In this document: piece after piece, positions 14,358 to 58,223 of the stretch
Layout of the letters: every line of letters begins with the position of its first letter
Position numbering within the stretch: position 1 is the stretch's first letter
DNA from: Eledone cirrhosa
Lineage: Eukaryota
Reading direction: 5' to 3'
DNA length: 64,000 nt
Assembly (NCBI GenBank): GCA_964016885.1
Contig: OZ024752.1
Span: 35,154,001-35,218,000, forward strand
Made by a program: the position numbers and the translations under genes
The notes under the pieces: model-generated
Told to the model about the DNA's origin: nothing
Seen by the model: the letters and a program-made list of their open reading frames with translations, nothing else
Databases searched by the model: none

Positions 14358-15026
14358 GATGAGGAGACTTGTAGATTTAAGCCACAGTTTTTCTTATTCC
14401 ATAAGCAAACTTGAAAAATTGACCTCAGAGCACAGACTCGAAATAAATACTTGCAAGGTATTGTATTCAATGCGCTAACGACTATTTACTTACTGTATAC
14501 ACTCAAATCATGGAGCAGGTGCTCCATGAAATAGGAAAAAATCTAAACGCTGTTGATAAACTGGGGCAAGTAATCAACAGATTATGTTTAGATGGTGTGG
14601 CTTTGAAATTCTTGTGAAGTTTTAATATTTAGTTATTTAAAATGTTTTAAGTGTCGTTTAGAGCAGGCATATCAAACATGCAGCCAGCGGCCTTTTACAA
14701 TTCAAAACATAACAATATCAAAAGGTGAAATACGAATTTCACCTCCAAAGTAAAGCTAGTGTAATATTCACCTCCAAAGTGAAAATATTTTCGCACCTCA
14801 TTTATGGAGAATCTTGAAATTGGTGAAAATGGGCAAGATATTAACCTCCACCCCCTTTACCATTTTTTTTTTTTTTTTTGTCACAAATTTCTTGGCTTAT
14901 ATTATAAGAGTATATACGGTAGTTCAAGCGACACTCCATTTAATTCAATCAACTGCCCTTCAACAGATGTAAAGATTCACCTAGAAACTGAACATTTAAA
15001 TTTGAAGAAAAAATGTAAAATCTTAC

Positions 15027-15115
15027 CTCATCTATTTCTTCTATTTCATCACCATAATCATCAAAAGTGATGTTGTCATCTTCACCTTCTTCCCAAGCAT
15101 TCTCATTAATTTTAA
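15027..15115 (-). CDS. EIF1A: eIF1A coding exon 5
   Basis: TGCAG|(V)KINENAWEEGEDDNITFDDYGDEIEEIDE|GTAAG; acidic C-terminal tail. Confidence 0.92.
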
Positions 15116-15543
15116 CTGCAGAATAAAAAGAAATATAACATTTAAAAACATTTTTTAAAACAAAATAATTTCAATATAAAATACCTTTTATTTGCTAGCC
15201 TATTGGACATCCCTTCCTATTAGACAACCCCTGGTCTTACAAGAACATTTTGAGAAAAATAGAATTTATAGTACATTTCTTCATAAATTTATTAAAATTT
15301 ATAAAAAAATTTTTCTTAGAAAACTCGTTGATACAGGTGTATCAGATGCAGGGAATTTGTATATTTTTAGGGTGAAAAAAGTATCTGTCTCTAATAGGCC
15401 AGCAAATATGGTAATCTTTCCATTGCTGGTACTATCTACCACGGTATACCAGTCGCAACTCCTGGTAATAATTCAAATATAATTTTATATATATACATAC
15501 ATACATACATATACACACACATACATACACACAAAAAAATTAC

Positions 15544-15676
15544 CTGAATCAGGTAACTCTCCGTAAGCTCTTAAATTTCTAGCTTCATCTGGTGTGTATT
15601 TAAGGATTACATCTGCTTTTGCATCTTGATATTCCCGTAAACCCAACAATATGATATCTCCAGAATTTATCCATAC
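15544..15676 (-). CDS. EIF1A: eIF1A coding exon 4
   Basis: TTTTAG|[44 protein letters not shown]|GTAA; 133 nt. Confidence 0.97.
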
Positions 15677-16078
15677 CTAAAACAAAACATTAAATAGAAA
15701 AATTAGAAATTCTATGAAAATGTTCTCATATACATTTCATTCATAATGAAATCCTAGTTTAATATTTCATTTAAAGAAATAAAAATGAGTTGTAGAGCAA
15801 GATAACAGGATAACATCCATGAGTTCAGCTGAAGGAGTACTTGGGGACTCTCACCCCATGACCCTCCCAGAAATAAGTAGGTGAAGGAGGGTTGTAGAGC
15901 TTCACCTTTTGGATTCAATGTCTGTAGGACAGTGATTTGAAGTCTGTCTCTAGCCCAGCTCATCGGGTCAGTGCTTACCCTGGTTTCCATGGCGTTAATT
16001 AAATTTTAATACATAACATCATAAAATTTATATCAGAAACATTTTCATAAAAAATAAAAAAATTTGTTTGAAACTTGC

Positions 16079-16182
16079 TTTTTTTCTCAATTTCCCTCTG
16101 ATGTGACACAAACGCCTGTTTCCATCAAAACAAATGGCTTCTAATCGGCCATTTCCCAACATTTTGGCAACTTGTGCATATT
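16079..16182 (-). CDS. EIF1A: eIF1A coding exon 3
   Basis: TTCTAG|(E)[34 protein letters not shown]|GCAAGT; 104 nt, GC donor. Confidence 0.97.
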
Positions 16183-16686
16183 CTAGAAAAAAGGAAAAAA
16201 TCCAATTGTTTCACTAAACACCATATCTAACAATAAAAAATATGGATATAAAACAGTTAAAATAATAATTATTGGAACCAAGTTATTTTAACATTAATCC
16301 TTTTGATACCAAACCATCTGAAACCACTCCAGATTCTATGATACAGGAATCAATAATGAATCAATCGACAAGATCCCAGACCTCATTTGCTGACCAAGTG
16401 AGGGTGGAATTCATGAAATCGGACTAAAGAAACAATGTCTCAATTGGTCTTTTCATTGCTGATAACACCCCAGTCTGAGCGGTATCTCTCAGCTGTGACC
16501 TGCAGATGAAATGGTGATGGCATTGCCATGGACAATGCCCAGCAATACCTACTACAACAACCACTCCACCTCACAGGGCTCTTCAGGCAGTGTATTTCAT
16601 TAGAAATATGTTAACAAATGGGTTAACAAGGATATTTTTCTGGTTTCTCATACAAACTTTACAAGACAAATGAATAACTTGCTTAC

Positions 16687-33018: not shown

Positions 33019-34526
33019 CAGAGTCATCTAACACACACCAACATGAAAAATAAAAAAACAATATTAAAATAAATAATAATAATGGCTTCTGATTTAGACA
33101 CAAGGCCAAACATTTTTTGGACAAAGGAAAGTCGATTAAATCAACCTTAGTGCGTTACTGGTACTTTATTTTATTGACCCCATAAGGATGAAAGGTGAAG
33201 CTAATGTCGGCATGATTTGAACTCAGAATGTAAAGGGTGTCTGATCTACCGATACTGCCTATCCAGCACCCTCAATAATAATGAAGATCTTTTTCTCTTT
33301 GTATAGATCAAATAATCTGAAACATCACAAAAAACATCTTGCATGCTCAACCCAGTGAAATTCATGTAAACAGTAACCTTGTTTTACAAGTAAAATTCCT
33401 TTAAATGAAAAAATCCTGAATCTGATTGAAGCATGAGGGAAGAGGTTAAAAGACATGTAACTGAGAAAATTAAAAAGATACATCCAGATGTAAAAAGATA
33501 GCCCTAGGTGTAAAAAAGATAGCTTTAGATGATGTGAACTAAACGATTCAAGTATGAAGGTAGAGGTTAAAAGACATGTAACTGAGAAAATGAGAAAGAC
33601 AGCTCTGGATGTAAAAGAGAGCTCTAGATGTAGATAATATAAATTATATGATTGAAGTATGAACGTAATGGTAAAAAGATATGTTAACTGAGAAAATGAA
33701 AAAGATACCTCCAGATGATATAAACTATACGATTGAAGAATGATGGTAATGGTAAAAGATATGTAACAGAAAATTTAAAAGATAGATTCAGATAATATAA
33801 ACTATACAGCCAATATATTCATAATATTGTTGTTGTTTAGCCCTATGATGTTAGCCCTGATTGAGCAGACAAATCTATGATCAAAAACATTTTTAACTGT
33901 GACCATTCCACCATTTTTGTTGATGTTGTTTGGTAACATATAGTGTATCTAAAACAACTTTTGTTATAAAGACAGTAATGTGTGTGATTTGAAGGAGATT
34001 CAGCTGCTATATCTAGCAAGTTGAGCTACCACATAGCAGCTTCTCTCATAATAAATGTTGATCTCTTTTTCCCAGTACAAGCCTCAGAATATTCACAGAT
34101 AATGAAGGTTTACTCCAAAGTTAGTTTGTTTTTAGTTATGTGTTTTTTACATAACTTTTAAAGTTCAATATTTTTTTCAGATTTTCTTGTGTAAATATTT
34201 TTTTAGCGTGTATAATTAAGGAGGTTTTCCCCACCTCTTCCATTGAAATGTATAGTTTATTATTATTATTAAAAAGTTATGCTATCACAGAGAAAAAAAG
34301 TCATGAAAAACTCTGAATAGATTTACTAACTAACCAAACAATAACGTTACATTTAGAAAAATTCTTCACATTAGATAAAAATTTATAATTTCGTGAATAA
34401 GTAATGTGAAAGAAAAATAACTTTCATTCCTTTTTTCACATATGTTTATGTTTGGTTTCATTTTCGTATAAAATCTTTTTTAAAAATAAAATCATTAAGT
34501 AAAATTTTTTTTTTTAAATAAAATTA

Positions 34527-35611
34527 TCAAGTAATTTTGAAATAGTTTCCTTGAGATTCCACACATGATTCCATTCGCCGGAACCAGCTTTCAAAACAGT
34601 CATTCCAATCTTGAGGGGTTAGTAATGTAGTAGCTTGGACAAAAGCACTAATAGCATCTCCCGGCTTAGTAAATTTAGTTCCAATAAGTTCTTTTTTCAC
34701 TTTAGGGTATACAAAATAATCCCAAGGAGATAAGTCGGGACTATGAGTAGGATGTGTGATTAATTGAATGTTGTTTTCAGTAAGACAGTCCATAGTAACT
34801 GCAGCAGTAAGATCATTTACATTACTATGATGGATAAGAATACCTTGGAGTCCAGAATCTTGTCGTACTTCTTTGATTTTTTCAAATAATTCAGGTAGAC
34901 ATTTTGTTAAATACCAACTAGGATTAACTTTAAATTTGTCTTTGAGTAAAATTGCAGCAAGATTACCAGATTTATTAAAAAAATTTACAATAGTCTTTTT
35001 TTGGACATTTTGTGGATGTTTCCATTTAAGATAATAATCTTCATCAAGGAAAGTCCATACACTAGACGGCTTTTTAGATTCAGTATATTGATAAAGTTGG
35101 AATTCAACTCCAAGAACAATATTTCCAATCTTATGAGGAGAACCATTTTTAAACTTTTTTAGCATAAACTCACACCACTCCATCCTTGCCAACTTTTGTT
35201 CCTCACTTAAGATTTGGGGAACCCAGCACATGTTAAGTTTGCGAACATATAAATAATCGTGAAGGATCGATCGAACACTTTCTGATCCAATATTCAATAC
35301 AGTTTCTAGTTCTTTATAAGTTACCCTAGAATCTTCTCTTAGTAATAGTTTAATTGCTTCAATGTTCTGAGGTGTAATAGTAGCGTTAAAAGTTTCATTG
35401 TCCATACATTCATTAGTTTGTTCAAATTCTTTGAACCAAAATTCAACTGTACAATATGGAGGACTTTGGTCTTGGAATACTTCATGTAGTATTTCCTGAG
35501 ATTCTGAAATAGTTTTTCCCTCACAGTAATGTAAAAATATCATGTCTCGAAAGTCCCGATTTTGCAGTTTCATGGAAAAAACTTGCCTCTGCAGCCTAAT
35601 TTTATCAAGTT
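34527..35611 (-). CDS. mariner (DD34D-family) transposase-derived protein, catalytically degenerate; probably the main coding exon of a domesticated gene (ATG at 35573, frame open back to the acceptor at 35611)
   Basis: Uninterrupted 348-aa ORF with HTH-like N-terminus (TVEFWFKEF), WVPQIL (WVPHEL motif), IVLGVE (usually IxTGDE), HHSN (usually HDN), HSPDLSPWDY (YSPDLAPxD). Preceded by a ~20-T tract and CAG acceptor. Confidence 0.85.
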
Positions 35612-36179
35612 CTGAAAAAAAAAAAAAAAAAAAGACATTATAAGAGAAGGAAGTATATTTGGAATGTGGTTAGCAAAGTTTAGAATTGAAACAGAAATAT
35701 AAGCTAAGCCGTAATATTTATTATCTAGTCTAATAATAGGATGTATATACCCACTGAACAGAAAAAGATGGGTTTAGACGCCCCATTATTTAACTACAAC
35801 TTTGATAGGTTTCGGCCAGTATAGAACCACCTGGCACCACTATATTATAGAAAAAGAATATTACAGCATAGCTTCTATTTCTATTTCAATTATAAGAGTA
35901 AATTGAAAATGTTTTTTAAATACATAAATGAGTTTCATTAACTTAAAAAATATATATAATTAAAAACAAAAAATAAACAAAAACATTCTAATCCTTTTCA
36001 TACCAAACTGCCTGAAACCTCCCTGGATTTATGACACAAAATTATTCATTATAAAATTATTATCCTTATATTAAAATCTATCAGTCAATCAATATGTTGC
36101 ACTGCTTGTACAGATTCCCTTGACTTCCTGCTACCATCCAATTCACAGGGCATCATATAAGATGGGGGACCTTCACTTC

Positions 36180-39100
36180 AGGGATGGTACTACAATATCT
36201 TAGGTATCTCATATATAGACTAAACACATAAGATATGGACCACAACTGTAGAGATATAAAGATACAGGCACTAGAAATGGGGTGGTACTACAATATCTTA
36301 GGTATCTCATATATAGACTAAACACATAAGATATGGACTACAACTGTAGAGATATAAAGATACAGGCACTACAATATCTTAGGTATCTCATATATACACT
36401 ATACACATAAGATATGGACCACAACTGTAGAGATATAAAGATACAGGCACTACAATATCTTAGGTATCTCATATATAGACTAAACACATAAGATATGGAC
36501 CACAACTGTAGAGATATAAAGATACAGGCACTAGAAATGGGATGGTACTACAATATCTTAGGTATCCCATATATAGACTAAACACATAAGATATGGACCA
36601 CAACTGTAGAGATATAAAGATACAGGCACTAGAAATGGGATGGTACTACAATATCTTAGGTATCTCATATATAGACTAAACACATAAGATATGGACCACA
36701 ACTGTAGAGATATAAAGATACAGGCACTAGAAATGGGGTGGTACTACAATATCTTAGGTATCTCATATATAGACTAAACACATAAGATATGGACCACAAC
36801 TGTAGAGATATAAAGATACAGGCACTAGAAATGGGGTGGTACTACAATATCTTAGGTATCTCATATATAGACTAAACACATAAGATATGGACCACAACTG
36901 TAGAGATATAAAGATACAGGCACTAGAAATGGGATGGTACTACAATATCTTAGGTATCTCATATATAGACTATACACATAAGATATGGACCACAACTGTA
37001 GAGATATAAAGATACAGGCACTAGAAATGGGATGGTACTACAATATCTTAGGTATCTCATATATAGACTAAACACATAAGATATGGACCACAACTGTAGA
37101 GATATAAAGATACAGGCACTAGAAATGGGGTGGTACTACAATATCTTAGGTATCTCATATATAGACTAAACACATAAGATATGGACCACAACTGTAGAGA
37201 TATAAAGATACAGGCACTAGAAATGGGGTGGTATTACAATATCTTAGGTATCTCATATATAGACTAAACACACAAGATATGGACCACAACTGTAGAGATA
37301 TAAAGATACAGGCACTACAATATCTTAAGTATCTCATATATACACTAAACACATAAGATATGGACCACAACTGTAGAGATATAAAGATACAGGCACTAGA
37401 AATGGGATGGTACTACAATATCTTAGGTATCTCATATATAGACTAAACACATAAGATATGGACCACAACTGTAGAGATATAAAGATACAGGCACTAGAAA
37501 TGGGATGGTACTACAATATCTTAGGTATCTCATATATAGACTATACACATAAGATATGGACCACAACTGTAGAGATATAAAGATACAGGCACTAGAAATG
37601 GGGTGGTACTACAATATCTTAGGTATCTCATATATAGACTAAACACATAAGATATGGACCACAACTGTAGAGATATAAAGATACAGGCACTAGAAATGGG
37701 ATGGTACTACAATATCTTAGGTATCTCATATATAGACTAAACACATAAGATATGGACCACAACTGTAGAGATATAAAGATACAGGCACTAGAAATGGGAT
37801 GGTACTACAATATCTTAGGTATCTCATATATAGACTATACACATAAGATATGGACCACAACTGTAGAGATATAAAGATACAGGCACTAGAAATGGGGTGG
37901 TACTACAATATCTTAGGTATCTCATATATAGACTAAACACATAAGATATGGACCACAACTGTAGAGATATAAAGATACAGGCACTACAATATCTTAGGTA
38001 TCTCATATATAGACTATACACATAAGATATGGACCACAACTGTAGAGATATAAAGATACAGGCACTAGAAATGGGATGGTACTACAATATCTTAGGTATC
38101 TCATATATACACTATACACATAAGATATGGACCACAACTGTAGAGATATAAAGATACAGGCACTAGAAATGGGATGGTACTACAATATCTTAGGTATCTC
38201 ATATATAGACAAAACACATAAAATATGGACCACAACTGTAGAGATATAAAGATACAGGCACTAGAAATGGGATGGTACTACAATATCTTAGGTATCTCAT
38301 ATATAGACTAAACACATAAAATATGGACCACAACTGTAGAGATATAAAGATACATGCACTAGAAATGGGATGGTACTACAATATCTTAGGTATCTCATAT
38401 ATAGACTATACACATAAAATATGGACCACAACTGTAGAGATATAAAGATACAGGCACTAGAAATGGGATGGTACTACAATATCTTAGGTATCTCAAATAT
38501 AGACTAAACACATAAGATATGGACCACAACTGTAGAGATATAAAGATACAGGCACTAGAAATGGGATGGTACTACAATATCTTAGGTATCTCATATATAG
38601 ACTAAACACATAAAATATGGACCACAACTGTAGAGATATAAAGATACAGGCACTAGAAATGGGATGGTACTACAATATCTTAGGTATCTCATATATAGAC
38701 TAAACACATAAAATATGGACCACAACTGTAGAGATATAAAGATACAGGCACTAGAAATGGGATGGTACTACAATATCTTAGGTATCTCATATATAGACTA
38801 AACACATAAAATATGGACCACAACTGTAGAGATATAAAGATACAGGCACTAGAAATGGGATGGTACTACAATATCTTAGGTATCTCATATATAGACTAAA
38901 CACATAAGATATGGACCACAACTGTAGAGATATAAAGATACAGGCACTACAATATCTTAGGTATCTCATATATAGACTATACACATAAGATATGGACCAC
39001 AACTGTAGAGATATAAAGATACAGGCACTAGAAATGGGATGGTACTACAATATCTTAGCTATCTCATATATACACTATACACATAAGATATGGACCACAA

Positions 39101-42100
39101 CTGTAGAGATATAAAGATACAGGCACTAGAAATGGGATGGTACTACAATATCTTAGGTATCTCATATATAGACTATACACATAAGATATGGACCACAACT
39201 GTAGAGATATAAAGATACAGGCACTAGAAATGGGATGGTACTACAATATCTTAGGTATCTCATATATACACTATACACATAAGATATGGACCACAACTGT
39301 AGAGATATAAAGATACAGGCACTAGAAATGGGATGGTACTACAATATCTTAGCTATCTCATATATACACTATACACATAAAATATGGACCACAACTGTAG
39401 AGATATAAAGATACAGGCACTAGAAATGGGATGGTACTACAATATCTTAGGTATCTCATATATAGACTATACACATAAGATATGGACCACAACTGTAGAG
39501 ATATAAAGATACAGGTACTAGAAATGGGATGGTACTACAATATCTTAGGTATCTCATATATAGACTATACACATAAAATATGGACCACAACTGTAGAGAT
39601 ATAAAGATACAGGCACTACAATATCTTAGGTATCTCATATATACACTATACACATAAGATATGGACCACAACTGTAGAGATATAAAGATACAGGCACTAC
39701 AATATCTTAGGTATCTCATATATACACTATACACATAAGATATGGACCACAACTGTAGAGATATAAAGATACAGGCACTACAATATCTTAGGTATCTCAT
39801 ATATACACTATACACATAAGATATGGACCACAACTGTAGAGATATAAAGATACAGGCACTACAATATCTTAGGTATCTCATATATACACTATACACATAA
39901 GATATGGACCACAACTGTAGAGATATAAAGATACAGGCACTACAATATCTTAGGTATCTCATATATAGACTAAACACATAAGATATGGACCACAACTGTA
40001 GAGATATAAAGATACAGGCACTAGAAATGGGATGGTACTACAATATCTTAGGTATCTCATATATAGACTATACACATAAGATATGGACCACAACTGTAGA
40101 GATATAAAGATACAGGCACTAGAAATGGGGTGGTACTACAATATCTTAGGTATCTCATATATAGACTAAACACATAAGATATGGACCACAACTGTAGAGA
40201 TATAAAGATACAGGCACTAGAAATGGGATGGTACTACAATATCTTAGGTATCTCATATATAGACTAAACACATAAGATATGGACCACAACTGTAGAGATA
40301 TAAAGATACAGGCACTAGAAATGGGATGGTACTACAATATCTTAGGTATCTCATATATAGACTATACACATAAGATATGGACCACAACTGTAGAGATATA
40401 AAGATACAGGCACTAGAAATGGGGTGGTACTACAATATCTTAGGTATCTCATATATAGACTAAACACATAAGATATGGACCACAACTGTAGAGATATAAA
40501 GATACAGGCACTAGAAATGGGATGGTACTACAATATCTTAGCTATCTCATATATACACTATACACATAAAATATGGACCACAACTGTAGAGATATAAAGA
40601 TACAGGCACTAGAAATGGGATGGTACTACAATATCTTAGGTATCTCATATATAGACTATACACATAAGATATGGACCACAACTGTAGAGATATAAAGATA
40701 CAGGTACTAGAAATGGGATGGTACTACAATATCTTAGGTATCTCATATATAGACTATACACATAAAATATGGACCACAACTGTAGAGATATAAAGATACA
40801 GGCACTACAATATCTTAGGTATCTCATATATACACTATACACATAAGATATGGACCACAACTGTAGAGATATAAAGATACAGGCACTACAATATCTTAGG
40901 TATCTCATATATACACTATACACATAAGATATGGACCACAACTGTAGAGATATAAAGATACAGGCACTACAATATCTTAGGTATCTCATATATACACTAT
41001 ACACATAAGATATGGACCACAACTGTAGAGATATAAAGATACAGGCACTACAATATCTTAGGTATCTCATATATACACTATACACATAAGATATGGACCA
41101 CAACTGTAGAGATATAAAGATACAGGCACTACAATATCTTAGGTATCTCATATATAGACTAAACACATAAGATATGGACCACAACTGTAGAGATATAAAG
41201 ATACAGGCACTAGAAATGGGATGGTACTACAATATCTTAGGTATCTCATATATAGACTATACACATAAGATATGGACCACAACTGTAGAGATATAAAGAT
41301 ACAGGCACTAGAAATGGGGTGGTACTACAATATCTTAGGTATCTCATATATAGACTAAACACATAAGATATGGACCACAACTGTAGAGATATAAAGATAC
41401 AGGCACTAGAAATGGGATGGTACTACAATATCTTAGGTATCTCATATATAGACTAAACACATAAAATATGGACCACAACTGTAGAGATATAAAGATACAG
41501 GCACTAGAAATGGGATGGTACTACAATATCTTAGGTATCTCATATATAGACTAAACACATAAAATATGGACCACAACTGTAGAGATATAAAGATACAGGC
41601 ACTAGAAATGGGATGGTACTACAATATCTTAGGTATCTCATATATAGACTAAACACATAAAATATGGACCACAACTGTAGAGATATAAAGATACAGGCAC
41701 TAGAAATGGGATGGTACTACAATATCTTAGGTATCTCATATATAGACTAAACACATAAGATATGGACCACAACTGTAGAGATATAAAGATACAGGCACTA
41801 CAATATCTTAGGTATCTCATATATAGACTATACACATAAGATATGGACCACAACTGTAGAGATATAAAGATACAGGCACTAGAAATGGGATGGTACTACA
41901 ATATCTTAGGTATCTCATATATAGACTATACACATAAGATATGGACCACAACTGTAGAGATATAAAGATACAGGCACTAGAAATGGGATGGTACTACAAT
42001 ATCTTAGCTATCTCATATATACACTATACACATAAGATATGGACCACAACTGTAGAGATATAAAGATACAGGCACTAGAAATGGGATGGTACTACAATAT

Positions 42101-44070
42101 CTTAGGTATCTCATATATAGACTATACACATAAGATATGGACCACAACTGTAGAGATATAAAGATACAGGCACTAGAAATGGGATGGTACTACAATATCT
42201 TAGGTATCTCATATATACACTATACACATAAGATATGGACCACAACTGTAGAGATATAAAGATACAGGCACTAGAAATGGGATGGTACTACAATATCTTA
42301 GCTATCTCATATATACACTATACACATAAAATATGGACCACAACTGTAGAGATATAAAGATACAGGCACTAGAAATGGGATGGTACTACAATATCTTAGG
42401 TATCTCATATATAGACTATACACATAAGATATGGACCACAACTGTAGAGATATAAAGATACAGGTACTAGAAATGGGATGGTACTACAATAGCTTAGGTA
42501 TCTCATATATAGACTATACACATAAAATATGGACCACAACTGTAGAGATATAAAGATACAGGCACTACAATATCTTAGGTATCTCATATATACACTATAC
42601 ACATAAGATATGGACCACAACTGTAGAGATATAAAGATACAGGCACTACAATATCTTAGGTATCTCATATATACACTATACACATAAGATATGGACCACA
42701 ACTGTAGAGATATAAAGATACAGGCACTACAATATCTTAGGTATCTCATATATACACTATACACATAAGATATGGACCACAACTGTAGAGATATAAAGAT
42801 ACAGGCACTACAATATCTTAGGTATCTCATATATACACTATACACATAAGATATGGACCACAACTGTAGAGATATAAAGATACAGGCACTACAATATCTT
42901 AGGTATCTCATATATACACTATACACATAAGATATGGACCACAACTGTAGAGATATAAAGATACAGGCACTAGAAATGGGATGGTACTACAATATCTTAG
43001 CTATCTCATATATACACTATACACATAAAATATGGACCACAACTGTAGAGATATAAAGATACAGGCACTAGAAATGGGATGGTACTACAATATCTTAGGT
43101 ATCTCATATATAGACTATACACATAAGATATGGACCACAACTGTAGAGATATAAAGATACAGGTACTAGAAATGGGATGGTACTACAATATCTTAGCTAT
43201 CTCATATATAGACTATACACATAAAATATGGACCACAACTGTAGAGATATAAAGATACAGGCACTAGAAATGGGATGGTACTACAATATCTTAGCTATCT
43301 CATATATACACTATACACATAAAATATGGACAACAACTGTAGAGATATAAAGATACAGGCACTAGAAATGGGATGGTACTACAATATCTTAGGTATCTCA
43401 TATATAGATTATACACATAAGATATGGACCACAACTGTAGAGATATAAAGATACAGGCACTAGAAATGGGATGGTACTACAATATCTTAGGTATCTCATA
43501 TATAGACTATACACATAAGATATGGACCACAACTGTAGAGATATAAAGATACAGGCACTAGAAATGGGATGGTACTACAATATCTTAGGTATCTCATATA
43601 TAGACTATACACATAAGATATGGACCACAACTGTAGAGATATAAAGATACAGGCACTAGAAATGGGATGGTACTTATACACATAAGATATGTATCACAAC
43701 TGTAGAGATACAGAGATAGATATAGACATTATAAATGAGATGTTATCTCCAATATCTTAGGCATATCATATATAGGCACCATATCACATAATATATGAAC
43801 CCTCACTACAGAAATAGATAGAGGCACTAGAAATGTAATTGTACTAGAATATTTTAGGTATCTCAAATATAGACTATACACATAATATATGAACCCTCAT
43901 TACAGAAATAGATATAGGACCTAGAAATGAAATGGTACCCCAATATCTTAGATATCATATAAAATATGGACAACAACTGTAAAGATATAAAGATACAGAC
44001 ACTAGAAATGAGATGTTACTCCCAATATCTTAGGTATCTCATATATAGACACCATATCACATCAGGTATG
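36180..44070. repeat. Satellite of 98-bp and 81-bp monomers (~7.5 kb homogeneous, diverged monomers 43680-44070)
   Basis: Unit CTAGAAATGGGATGGTACTACAATATCTTAGGTATCTCATATATAGACTAAACACATAAGATATGGACCACAACTGTAGAGATATAAAGATACAGGCA; the short form lacks the first 17 bp. Confidence 0.98.
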
Positions 44071-46044
44071 AACCCTTACAATTAATAACATTTTAAAAGC
44101 ATTTATAACTTTTAAGCTTTTAATAGAAGCTAAAAATTCAGGTTTGATCATTTATCAACTGATCAGTAGATAAAAACTTTGATGAATCGGCTCAAAACAA
44201 ATTTCCTTTTTTTAATTTCTAAATTAGACTTGAATTACATTTTTTAAAATTAGTTTTTTTTAGACCGTTTCCAGGTGATATTATTTCAACTAATGTTTAA
44301 TGATCTCATAAGTTACTGATGGCCTTCCAAGATCCAGGGCCTTCCCACTCCTGTTCGAGGAACCCCTCCCTGGTTGACATTCACCACTTCCTGTCTCTGG
44401 CCATATGGGGTCGTGGTATCGAGTTAGATCATCGATGACCACCCTCTGGTTCTTCTCCGCTGCCTTGGTGTCCATTCTGTCACTCAGATGGCTTTAGAGA
44501 TAGATAATACGACCCCCCCCCCCTCCTCTCGTTTCTACCCTAACCCGACAGCATGTCCACGAGTAAACATTTAATTAGTAGCCTACCTAGCAAAATAAGT
44601 GAAAAGACCACAACTATAAACAGCGTGAGCACTGTAATTGGCCCATGGTTTCATTAGCTTGCATCGCTGGGCCCTCTTTCTCCAATGAAGGAATAGGGTT
44701 CCATTCGCCCTTAATATGCTTGCTACATGAAAATATATATATAAATATTCAATTAAATTCTAATATGTATATATATATATAGGGGCTCAGCTACATACAA
44801 CCCAAGTAATCAAACATATAGCCGGCATTTATAGCAAAAATGGACATTTAAATTATTAAGGTCTTATACTTTCGGACAGGAACAGGTGCTCTTAACGCGA
44901 AAATATTTTTAACAAATATATCAATAAGAAAAATAGTATAATCGAAGGGAACTAGCATTGATCTGAGTCGGCAATTAGTAATGTGAAGAATTTATTTTAC
45001 TAGTTATTCCGCTGAGCGATGCTAAACCTGTCGGCTGGACTGGATTATCAATGAACATATTGATTAAATTATGAGAATTGTAAATAAAAATTATGCAATT
45101 AATTATATTTATTTATTTTAATGAGAAAATAGATTTAATAATATGTTTTCTGATTAATAATAAAATGGAAAAAATCAGCGAGAAAAGAATGGATGAACAA
45201 CGATGGATTTTACCGATAATTTCTTAGTTTACATGAATCAATTACACCGTTAGACAACATATAAAGTCGTCCACTAATATAAAGAATAAGTTTTAGAATG
45301 TAAATTAATTGTAATAATATATTAAAGCGTATAGGCATATTTTAATCAATGAATATATTTGACCAATTTAGATTCCTTCATTAAAAAAAATCCAATATTT
45401 TCTCAAGAAGCGGTAAGGGAACAAGGCATGGCTACATTATGGTATATTAAACATTATCACGGAATAAAACAGCAAATTAGTGAGGAAAAAATATCGTTTA
45501 AGTCATTATTTTAAGTAAATACAGCAAATAATACTGAATTTCTTCTTCAAATATAATATAGAAAATAATTGGAATTGTTAGTTTGATGAAAAGAATCGAA
45601 GTTAATTATTTTGCAGAATATTAGCAAGAGTACGTTCCCAGACTAGCAATTAGGCCATTCCATAAATATAGAAAAATAAAAAAACAACAACATAGACAAG
45701 AACAGCTATTTTAATTATTAAAATATAAACATGCATATTTAAAATAGAGCCATATATATATTTTTTAAAAGTAGTGTATTGCATAAACGACTATTAAAGA
45801 CAGATTTAGTTACACAGGCTAGGCTAGGCTACCTATGTAAGGCAAGTGCTCAAATTTTCAAAGGAAATTTTTTATAAATATATAAATGTATATATATATA
45901 AGTACAAAGCAAGCATACAACACACATATATATATAAGTCCACGAGGAGGAAATGCAATGTAAGCAGAGAAGGCAACAAAAATTCACCGAACATGTTACA
46001 TTCTTACAGGCAACTGTTACATGCTAACTACTACTGTACGTTAC

Positions 46045-46060
46045 CTTTCATTTTGGGCAT
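46045..46060 (-). CDS. Candidate start-codon exon (MPKMK-) for the mariner-derived gene; whole exon 46045-46121
   Basis: CTCTGCAG|...AAT ATG CCC AAA ATG AAA G|GTAACG; the phase-1 donor joins in frame with the acceptor at 35611. Another donor CAG|GTAATG at 46233 suggests a preceding leader exon. Confidence 0.4.
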
Positions 46061-47439
46061 ATTATAACACCTCGCTCCAAACTATGGAGCAGAGACATTA
46101 AACAAGCGAATAAGCACAACCCTGCAGAGCAATAGATGAATTATGGGAGATATTCTATAGTTCTTTATTTATTTATTTTTAATTTCACTTTTCTTCCCCC
46201 TGTTTTTCAGATGCTTTCGTGTTGTGACATTACCTGGTTTATGTGTAGTGGCATTTTAAAGCGGAACTTGCGTACTTATTTATATTAGAATGATTAAAAT
46301 TAATTTTAGGAAATAATATTTTTTTTAAATGATAATTTTTTTCTCAAATATGGCCTTAAATATTTTTTTTTACAAATCGAATTATGGCTTTAATTTGCTA
46401 AAACAGTTACCCATTATTTCAATTTCATAGATGTGTGTAAACATATATAGCAGGAGTATTGCTCCATAAACCATAAATAATTTTTCTCCGAAAATACAAT
46501 ATTCCCAATACATTTCCCCATTAAAATTGTTCAACCTCTTTCCTTCACGATTTATTTAATAATTTTAACCAATGTGAATTCAAAGATAATTTTATTTTAT
46601 TTTATTTAGAATATCAAAAAATATAACAAACGTCTCCTATAAAAATTATGCATTATACAAACATACAAGCACTGACTCAAATGGCAGTAGCACGAACATT
46701 TTTGAAAATACGGTATCATGAATTTGAAAGTTCTCTCTAAAAAATGTTTAGCTAGCTTACACGACATTTAAACTAACAATATATTTCAGGGCATTAAGGA
46801 AAAATAAATATTTCTTTCACAATGAAAAAAAAAACTACGGTAATCTTTGAGCTTATTTAAATGTCTAAATACAAGTTTCACGAGAAATCTTAAATTTTAT
46901 TAATTTATTAAATTTTTAATTTTTTTTTTATTAATTCTTAAAAGTCAAAATTAAAAAAAAATAATTCCATAAGAATTTAACATTAAGTTAACGCTAAATA
47001 ATAATTATTATTATACTAATAATTAATATCTTGGATAAGGAGGGTATTTTTCGTAATACTGAGTAATTTTAATTTCTATGACACATATTTCAGAGGAACC
47101 CCCGTAGAATATAAGATCCCGGCAAACCGAGACTGCAGCGTGGTTTCACTCTCGGTCGATTCCAAATTACATTGTGTCAATGTTCCTTAAATCCACATTT
47201 AATCACGATATACATATAGTGTTAGGGTTAAAAGTGGAAAATTGCGGCGTAATTGAAAAACGAAACTAATGATAATATAAAACTTAAATAACAATAGTCA
47301 TTTTTTTATACAAAATTTCACAATGTCATAAAAATCATCGATATTATATAAAAATTATTTAGCAGTATCTAATAAAAATAAAACTCTATTAAAGGGAAGG
47401 GAAAAAAGCAAATGAAAAGAAGAAAAGGAAAGAAATGAT

Positions 47440-49741: not shown

Positions 49742-50548
49742 ATGTCATTGCAAAGATATATCTTCAGTTTGCCAGGGTTTTATGAACGAGAAGTGTTACA
49801 GAAGAAAGTAAGAAATTATTTCAGACGCCATCAATTTAGCTCAGAAGAGCGTATGCTGGTTGTAGACTGGATGTTAGTATGTGTTGATTATTATGGGGTT
49901 TCTATTCAAGTGTTTTTCCTCGCAGTTTCTTATTTTGATTTATACATGTCTTGTAAAACGATACGAGCAGTTCATTCTATGAAACTGCAATGTGTCGCAA
50001 CATGTTGTATTTGGCTTGCCTTCATTATATTATCTCAAGATAAGAGAAAGGTGGAACATTTTCTTAATATGGTAACGAATGTAGACCCAGAGTCTAGCGT
50101 AGAAGAACTTCATCGTATGTACGCCTCACTGGTTCAACGTTTCCAGAGTAAACCGTATTTAGTTACACCTTATATGTTTCTTACGACCTATTTAATTATA
50201 CTCCGAATGGAAGCTAATCATTACTTAACTCCAATGTCCTACTACATATTGGAACTATCGCAATACGATGAGTATATTTGTGTAACAAACAGATTTAAAT
50301 CGAGTCTAATAGCTACGGCTGCTATTTTCACAGGATTAGTAGCTTTGAGGCTCACAAATACCTGGATTTCTGACTTATCTATGTTAACACCATATAGTGG
50401 AAAGGAGAAAGAATTAACACTTCTCCATCAGCGTATGTTGTATCTGCTAAAAATAGCCAACCCCAGATTACATAAGGCAGCATTCTTGAGACACAGCAGA
50501 CAAAATAAACATGCCGTTTCTTTGATTGATTATTCCTTTATTCAATAA
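49742..50548 (+). CDS. Divergent A/B-type cyclin-like protein, 268 aa, intronless CDS
   Basis: Cyclin box ERMLVVDWM (MRAILVDWL-like), FFLAVSYFDLYM, KLQCVATCCIWLA; second fold TPYMFL..YYILELS..FKSSLIATAAI..W..L..YS..; AATAAA overlaps the stop. Confidence 0.85.
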   Translation: MSLQRYIFSLPGFYEREVLQKKVRNYFRRHQFSSEERMLVVDWMLVCVDYYGVSIQVFFLAVSYFDLYMSCKTIRAVHSMKLQCVATCCIWLAFIILSQDKRKVEHFLNMVTNVDPESSVEELHRMYASLVQRFQSKPYLVTPYMFLTTYLIILRMEANHYLTPMSYYILELSQYDEYICVTNRFKSSLIATAAIFTGLVALRLTNTWISDLSMLTPYSGKEKELTLLHQRMLYLLKIANPRLHKAAFLRHSRQNKHAVSLIDYSFIQ

Positions 50549-57267: not shown

Positions 57268-58223
57268 TTACATTTTTTTTTCTGCTCCTGACTTGTGAGC
57301 TCCTTTGGACTTTGGAGTCGAAAGAGAAATCTTTGACACTGATTGAGACAGATGTCTTTGATAAAACATTTCTTCGTCTTCATGATTTTTTTTTGGTTTC
57401 AAACAATCTTTATAATCATTGCTTAGACTTTTCTGAATTACAAACTGCAATTTTGGAGATACTTTTTTGTTCTGTTTATCTACATTCTTTTGTTTAGTGT
57501 TGGGAGTAACCGGTTCTTTTTTAATATCCTTCTTCTTTTTTGCACAATGTTCCTGGAAAACTAATTCACCATTTTCAGCATTTTTCTTCCAGTTCATAAA
57601 ACAGTGCTCCTTCTTTAGAGCTTGTATTACCTGATTTTGCTCCCCACCACTTTTGCCTAGTTTTGTATTACAGTCTCTACGAAGAATAGTTTTACTTATG
57701 TTGTTATTAACTTTTGTTTTCACAGCCTTACTGTCATTCACGGTTGGTTTGTTCGTCTGATTTTTCACCTTTTGTTTTTGCTTCGTAGCATTATTAACAT
57801 TTGTCTTATTTCGTTTGTTCATAGAACGTAAGGTAACAACTTTGTAGAAACCTTCTTTGAACTCACAATCATTTTTAGATTTCATAAAAGAATACTCATT
57901 AGCCAGACTGTAATAAAGCTGTTTGTTCTTATTTACTTTATTTTCTTTGCATGGCTTTTGACTCTGCTTCACATTCTGGTTGTTTGTTATTCCATTAGGT
58001 TTACAATCCCGAGTATTTTCTTTGCCACTCTTCAATTCATTGGAATTACGATTATTAATAGTATTATTAGGCTTGCTTTTATTATCTTTTTTCACTTGTT
58101 TATTCAAAAAAGCATAATATATTGCTTCAGCTGAAATTTGAGAAAATTTTGTTTGCAGAATCTTACTGTCTCGTTGTAAAGCGTTGTATAAATCTTGCTT
58201 CCTTTCTGTTATCATGGTGATAT
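57268..58223 (-). CDS. Lys/Asn-rich uncharacterised protein, probable terminal coding exon (ATG at 58215)
   Basis: 948-nt non-repetitive ORF in AT-rich DNA; acceptor TATTACAG 8 nt upstream of the ATG; no domain recognised. Confidence 0.55.

Follow-up and report, generated by a model that had tools for sequence, protein, structure and literature searches.

Host-transposase fusions have been catalogued mainly in tetrapods. Here, two related mariner-derived sequences of the octopod Eledone cirrhosa were compared with the closest described systems, as presented in the accessible parts of the respective reports: a gene within a 64,000-nucleotide stretch of DNA (GenBank assembly GCA_964016885.1, contig OZ024752.1, positions 35,154,001 to 35,218,000; hereafter the window), and its paralog on contig C8, a transposase exon inside the last intron of SMARCE1/BAF57. 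Like the C8 paralog, the transposase of primate CSB-PGBD3 (ERCC6-piggyBac) serves a chromatin-remodelling gene as an alternative 3' terminal exon; unlike the paralog, it belongs to piggyBac, its host is an ATPase and not the BAF subunit SMARCE1, and no disarmed sister located elsewhere in the genome figures in the abstract (PMC2268245). In SETMAR/Metnase and KRABINER, a full-length mariner transposase of the same fold was captured by splicing in the last intron and is used for DNA binding (bioRxiv 10.1101/2020.05.07.082677), whereas the window gene carries no host domain and no longer has two of the catalytic Asp residues or the minor-groove linker. SETMAR, which an earlier annotation of this DNA (the original prediction) named as a precedent for mariner domestication, therefore differs from the window gene in architecture. 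The PiggyMac-like proteins of Paramecium are, like the window gene, paralogs lacking a catalytic site beside one that keeps it; they are ciliate piggyBac proteins with demonstrated binding and function, while binding by the window protein is suggested by analogy (PMC6143343). The Drosophila genes CG4570, CG14478, cag and toy are stand-alone, conserved and Tc1/mariner-derived, as is the window gene, but they keep a DNA-binding or a catalytic module, whereas the window protein has apparently lost both working surfaces (PMC13548663). Finally, Mos1 (PDB 4U7B, 3HOS) has the domain order and full-length fold of the window protein, in which the triad reads V/S/D; the GRP-type linker, terminal inverted repeats (TIRs) and multiple copies are absent from the window gene.

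According to the reading preferred here, to which a probability of roughly 45% was assigned, the window gene is a single-copy, disarmed mariner-derived gene, intact in several octopods, that likely has a start exon 10 kb upstream, was probably born from the SMARCE1 exon and is predicted to act through protein pairing. The last coding exon comprises two helix-turn-helix motifs (HTH1 and HTH2), a WVP linker, a clamp loop and an RNase H-like domain. Its mariner open reading frame (ORF) of 348 codons (34527-35573, minus strand) is stop-free throughout, as had been claimed for a full-length 348-amino-acid frame without stops or frameshifts. The codons reported for a V/S/D triad were confirmed (Table 1), with the claimed spacing of 34 residues between the last two sites. 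Since the alignment to Mos1 (E 5e-23) and 78 mariner rows, with an Asp consensus of 92-94% in these columns, places them there, the V/S/D positions are the true triad columns. V,S,D/E was present in 3/3 rows of the window clade and D,D,D in 3/3 rows of the paralog. Alignment to other mariners showed that the GRP linker is deleted, which agrees with its reported loss. The absence of TIRs was upheld as well: none of 23 inverted repeats in 33900-36150, nearly all A/T-rich, was TIR-like, though a similar scan showed TIRs on most of 18 ordinary copies.

The expected genome copy number of one was borne out. A DNA search of the 3.0-Gb genome returned 40 matches, only one of them full-length, namely the locus itself; the remaining 39 touch only the A/T-rich first 90 nt of the ORF. 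The region of the start exon is single-copy as well. A protein search of the genome returned the gene itself, one intact paralog (47% identical, contig C8) and 114 matches at 27-34%; near-identical TIR-flanked copies, the finding that would have spoken for a mobile element, were not found. An autonomous mariner (DD34D) element was rejected, since the fold is present but triad, TIRs and near-identical copies are missing. Two young multicopy mariner families do occur in the genome (L013-L030), with intact triads, TIRs and several open frames; they are only 27-34% identical to the window protein.

Intact orthologs, predicted for related species, were present in Octopus vulgaris (CAI9721525/6, 89% identical) and Argonauta hians (GAB1597971.1; 86% aligned, 84% by BLAST), and the Logan protein P0001 is a further intact ortholog (89%). 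Divergence from Argonauta was similarly low for the window gene (86%) and the SMARCE1 transposase exon (89%). Outside octopods, no ortholog was found in a near-length search (four matches among 1,415 candidates); because this search also missed the paralog at ~49%, the octopod-only range is a lower bound. These data bear on the possibility that the locus is an inert transposon fossil or a pseudogene that is not expressed and kept its frame by mere chance. The absence of stops is a weak argument by itself, because 29 of the 114 other mariner matches in the genome also lack an internal stop. No run recorded as RNA was listed for the ORF, and 14 runs guessed to be RNA contained shares of 0.05-0.08 of it, neither of which is evidence either way. 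Run X18, also the source of a spliced SMARCE1 contig, contained 0.43 of the sampled ORF words, with DNA carry-over as a possible cause. However, about 11 stops would be expected in the window ORF at only 0.2 neutral changes per site, the frame is still open although silent sites are saturated relative to the paralog, and three further database proteins are intact at 86-89% with the same derived residues. A fossil is thus very improbable. With a single copy, no transposon ends and intact orthologs in related species, the window gene is almost certainly domesticated. The original prediction was therefore sustained as to a domesticated, single-copy, disarmed and lineage-restricted gene, while its proposal of a DNA-binding protein fared less well, as described below.

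The splice layout was likewise largely as described. TTCAG precedes 35611 at the claimed acceptor, and the proposed upstream exon 46045-46121 has AG/GT ends and a phase-1 donor. The ATG at 46060 lies 16 nt from this donor and gives a five-residue lead, so that a protein of 366 amino acids is predicted, of the same length as O. vulgaris model P0006. Both named ortholog models (P0002 from Argonauta; P0005/P0006 from O. vulgaris) open with these five residues, joined to the same leader, which corresponds to splicing of the 46060 exon to the 35611 acceptor. Thus, the predicted 46045-to-35611 junction is matched by independent gene models in two species. A further candidate exon with matching phase had been proposed from 46234 onwards. 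It cannot code for the window protein: because the 46060 ATG is immediately preceded by an in-frame stop, this exon can only be untranslated. Within 46234-46420, two ATGs are in the wrong frame, and the frames they open end after 10 and 14 codons. Most of the predicted 10.4-kb intron consists of a 98/81-bp minisatellite of ~7.9 kb (36181-44076). The notion of the window gene as a host-transposase fusion was rejected, given the stop before the 46060 ATG and orthologs of 361-413 amino acids with HTH_48 only. A Pfam scan found no SET family in the window protein, its orthologs, P0012 or P0162, and an ORF listing extending 30 kb beyond the right end of the window gave no evident host gene able to splice into the acceptor. 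The Argonauta ortholog P0002 is labelled "serine-rich adhesin for platelets-like isoform X6"; as a guess, this label was borrowed from a Ser/Thr-rich SMARCE1 fusion isoform.

The intact paralog on C8 is a mariner exon that is spliced in frame to octopod SMARCE1 as an alternative last exon. The host was identified by an upstream C8 exon matching human SMARCE1 (E 1e-5) and by O. bimaculoides SMARCE1, which maps in 12 pieces at 69-98% over C8:10523558-10561524. The Thr-rich 781-nt exon ends in a phase that is compatible with the transposase acceptor (10569418) as well as with the native last exon (10571087). In two of four runs on the C8 exon (X18, X1), the acceptor marks the start of a contig, which has a loose end of 26 nt. 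That of X18, a run without differences from this genome, matches exactly the end of the SMARCE1 exon 2,955 nt upstream; that of X1, from another organism and study, resembles it. Coverage in the remaining two runs is limited to parts of the exon without the acceptor. Among the listed differences, 31 of 40 fall at third codon positions (p 1e-8; 139 differences in total). In a profile search of 1.84 billion representatives, the top-ranking protein was O. bimaculoides XP_014783185.1, at 644 bits as against 337 for the next; it shares 93% identity with the C8 exon. Its cluster contains Argonauta GAB1609329.1, a 1243-residue model that combines an HMG box with a mariner at its C-terminus (HTH_48).

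A search with the SMARCE1 exon returned only two non-fused proteins, and one with the C8 transposase exon gave no fused form of greater length among 2,463 candidates; the fusion was found solely as a cluster member, so that both blanks reflect clustering. The transposase exon keeps the triad in 3/3 species; other active-site neighbours differ. In the O. bimaculoides annotation, the exon appears as a separate "SETMAR-like" gene (P0012) without a SET domain. It is bracketed by a 27-nt inverted pair that is 81% complementary (L012:1332-1358 and 2712-2738); its arms lie 1.4 kb apart, near the expected transposon ends, without TA flanks. A dispersed TIR was rejected for this pair, as the one genome match per strand corresponded to its own two arms and no repeat family was found; it could be a remnant of TIRs, a pairing at the RNA level that influences which last exon is chosen, or coincidence. 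Full-text literature, which excluded most subscription journals and supplements, described neither the window gene nor a SMARCE1-transposase fusion; gene lists in the supplements of cephalopod genome papers could hold either. One report covers octopus pogo-, THAP- and ZBED-type factors and, in its accessible part, leaves SMARCE1, SETMAR and HTH_48 unmentioned (PMC10027918); another reports, in its accessible part, that an intron-bearing Tc1 group is absent from cephalopods (bioRxiv 10.1101/656579).

Phylogenetic trees were calculated with 18 of the 114 genomic copies, with the first 45 full-length of 150 representatives, and with 14 of those plus two genomic copies. The window clade and the SMARCE1-exon clade were sisters (100/100) against the 18 genomic copies and the 16 nearer mariners, and trees in which the window clade joined one or the other of two close free mariners were rejected (p-AU 2e-6 and 1e-4). 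From these trees, there is hardly any doubt that the window gene and the SMARCE1 exon are sisters. The pair differs by pS 0.82 and pN 0.31 over 360 codons. The split is old because silent sites are saturated, and it predates the divergence of Argonauta and Octopus because Argonauta has both genes. Both paralogs have a phase-1 acceptor at the same position, a leader ahead of the transposase Met, which is kept at the protein level with silent codon changes in both, and the same last residue. The stem of the window clade (0.59 changes per site) is longer than that of the paralog (0.28). Judged by these features, the window gene probably arose by copying of the SMARCE1 exon.

The window protein is predicted to have kept the mariner fold. 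Its best solved relatives by sequence are Mos1 and the SETMAR transposase domain. An AlphaFold model from 84 sequences, which replaced a poor one from 5 sequences (pLDDT 51), reached a pLDDT of 88.9, with the lowest confidence in the shortened inter-HTH linker. It matched Mos1 over the full length (E 1e-22), with a TM score of 0.90 to the catalytic domain 2F7T.

The DNA-binding region deviates from that of other mariners. Its net charge is -7 to -8 in 4/4 orthologs (-8 in the window protein); the paralog has +3, and 45 other mariners have a median of +4 with a minimum of -3, after three partial rows of <95 residues were dropped. The recognition helix plus linker carries -5, as against a minimum of -2 in other mariners. 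In Mos1, according to the accessible part of the structural report, the minor groove is bound by the inter-HTH linker, and Lys44 and Arg48 of HTH1 read the bases (PMC4505599); these two residues align to Cys and Phe in the window protein, and the paralog differs there too. Since the minor-groove linker is deleted and the charge lies below that of all 45 other mariner rows, the DNA-binding role claimed for the protein was judged weak. A stand-alone DNA-binding regulator, whose HTHs read DNA, perhaps old mariner ends, and compete with the SMARCE1 fusion, is accordingly considered unlikely. It would be consistent with the identity of HTH1 (50/53 to both O. vulgaris and Argonauta) and of HTH2 (40/43 and 38/43) among orthologs, with the HTH_48 match, which was the sole Pfam match of the window protein in the proposed profile check and scored above the Pfam cut-off (E 3e-7), and with the high modelled confidence of both HTHs. 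Besides charge and linker, however, it is opposed by the lack of a close transposon family that could supply binding sites among the 116 and 90 listed genome matches, of which the best candidates were scored.

Dimerization offers a different role. In Mos1, the WVPHEL linker and clamp loop account for >70% of the dimer interface, and the N-terminal domain likewise joins the subunits, in a head-to-head arrangement, as stated in the accessible part of the report (PMC4013102). Across orthologs, the segments that align to this interface are among the best conserved parts of the window protein: identity to O. vulgaris and Argonauta was 15/15 and 14/15 for the WVP linker and 30/32 and 29/32 for the clamp loop, and reached 8/14 and 7/14 for the inter-HTH linker and 60/73 and 58/73 for the C-terminus. 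Pairing was proposed because mariner dimers join via the N-terminal domain, the WVP linker and the clamp loop, all of which are well conserved. The favoured, sequence-derived view of its function is therefore pairing without any cutting or reading of DNA. By analogy with the PiggyMac-like proteins, it may be the partner of the SMARCE1 fusion, a suggestion that is made tentatively. DNA elimination is not known from octopods.

The following sequence of events would account for both genes. First, a mariner settled in the last intron of octopod SMARCE1/BAF57, where it is spliced in frame with D,D,D kept, and the window gene is the sister of this exon with the same acceptor phase and leader. The exon together with its acceptor would probably have been copied to another chromosome, where a five-codon start exon was gained. 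The window gene then lost two catalytic Asp residues and the minor-groove linker and its N-terminal domain turned acidic; its stem is twice that of the paralog, after which both changed about equally slowly. Lastly, and more doubtfully, the window protein may pair with the transposase part of the SMARCE1 fusion, which it would damp or position. An extended version appears rather unlikely: a two-gene octopod module in which the SMARCE1 isoform would bring a D,D,D transposase into BAF and the acidic sister would be its dedicated dimer partner, with a half-active or DNA-blind heterodimer in place of a DNA-cutting homodimer controlling where a BAF complex specific to octopods would bind or nick DNA.

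Several points weigh against this reading. With respect to origin, the tree gives sisterhood only and no direction of copying, and two separate captures are possible because the splice acceptor of KRABINER arrived with the transposon, as stated in the accessible part of that report (bioRxiv 10.1101/2020.05.07.082677). Independent captures of two copies of one ancient acceptor-bearing mariner family, by SMARCE1 and by a local start exon, or a stand-alone gene that was copied into SMARCE1, would thus be conceivable and were regarded as the less probable course; this alternative bears on the copying step only, and its odds overlap those of the other alternatives. It is opposed by the leader before the transposase ATG and the common end residue, by the nearest free mariners, which begin with a Met of their own and show 36-41% identity, and by the SMARCE1 copy being nearer to the ancestral state, with 47 of 66 mariner-conserved columns kept versus 38 of 66 in the window protein. 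With respect to function, the high conservation of HTH1 and HTH2 would also fit retained DNA binding, and between the paralogs only 6/15 residues of the WVP linker and 16/32 of the clamp loop are identical. Because the interface has diverged, the two paralogs may have lost the ability to pair with each other, and a homodimer or a different partner would fit equally well. The boundaries of the compared regions were set by the authors after viewing the alignment, the ortholog comparison was based on proteins with indirectly calibrated selection, and transcription and splicing of the window gene itself are deduced from gene models of other species.

The diverged interface, conserved within the clade, would also suit a homodimeric scaffold or adaptor with a job unrelated to SMARCE1, whose acidic N-terminal face would bind basic proteins, for example histones or other DNA-binding proteins. 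The long stem after the split and the acidic domain in 4/4 orthologs are in line with such a protein. It was nevertheless rated as improbable as the DNA-binding regulator, since no result points to a partner and shared ancestry makes the paralog the simplest candidate. Pairing with the SMARCE1 fusion was thus retained as the preferred function.

The features of both genes are collected in Table 1. Among the neighbours, an intronless ORF of 268 codons (49742-50548, plus strand) encodes a cyclin-like protein with Cyclin_N and Cyclin_C. It faces the transposase gene head to head, with ~3.5 kb between it and the 5' exons of that gene; possibly, it is a retrocopy and its promoter region is common to both. 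Exons of eIF1A lie at 14952-16210 (minus strand), with a Pfam eIF-1a match on two of three pieces. A Lys/Asn-rich ORF of 315 codons (57268-58215, minus strand) had no Pfam match and no usable Atlas match. None of 13 further window ORFs that were scanned matched a transposase family.

Table 1. Features of the window gene and of its SMARCE1-embedded paralog. Positions refer to the window unless a locus or contig is named.
Feature	Position	Strand	Remarks
Candidate untranslated first exon	46234..46270	-	Good donor; short out-of-frame upstream ORF
Start exon, 77 nt	46045..46121	-	AG/GT ends; in-frame stop, then ATG at 46060
Predicted intron, 10,433 nt	35612..46044	-	Mostly minisatellite
Polypyrimidine tract and AG acceptor, phase 1	35612..35633	-	From sequence; use deduced from ortholog gene models
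Large last coding exon	34527..35611	-	12-codon leader and 348-codon mariner-derived ORF
First catalytic position, Val for Asp	35106..35108	-	Val in 4/4 orthologs
Second catalytic position, Ser for Asp	34824..34826	-	Ser in 4/4 orthologs
Third catalytic position, Asp retained	34719..34721	-	Glu in Argonauta
Sole AATAAA/ATTAAA within 1.2 kb past the stop	34256..34261	-	Weak; A/T-rich context
SMARCE1 transposase exon	L012:1457-2562 = G000:C8:10569418-10570523		Intact D,D,D; alternative last exon
Thr-rich SMARCE1 exon, 781 nt	L043:5682-6462		Ends in phase 1

Taken together, a core BAF subunit of octopods captured a mariner, and a second, conserved gene encodes that transposase in a form that has lost cutting and likely also the reading of DNA. 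The annotations "SETMAR-like", "hypothetical" and "serine-rich adhesin" for proteins of the window gene and of the SMARCE1 exon are corrected accordingly. If the proposed origin holds, the two genes would be a case of duplication after capture into an armed and a disarmed partner, which is best known so far from PiggyMac of ciliates. Both genes also offer a concrete change, specific to the lineage, in the way octopuses remodel chromatin.

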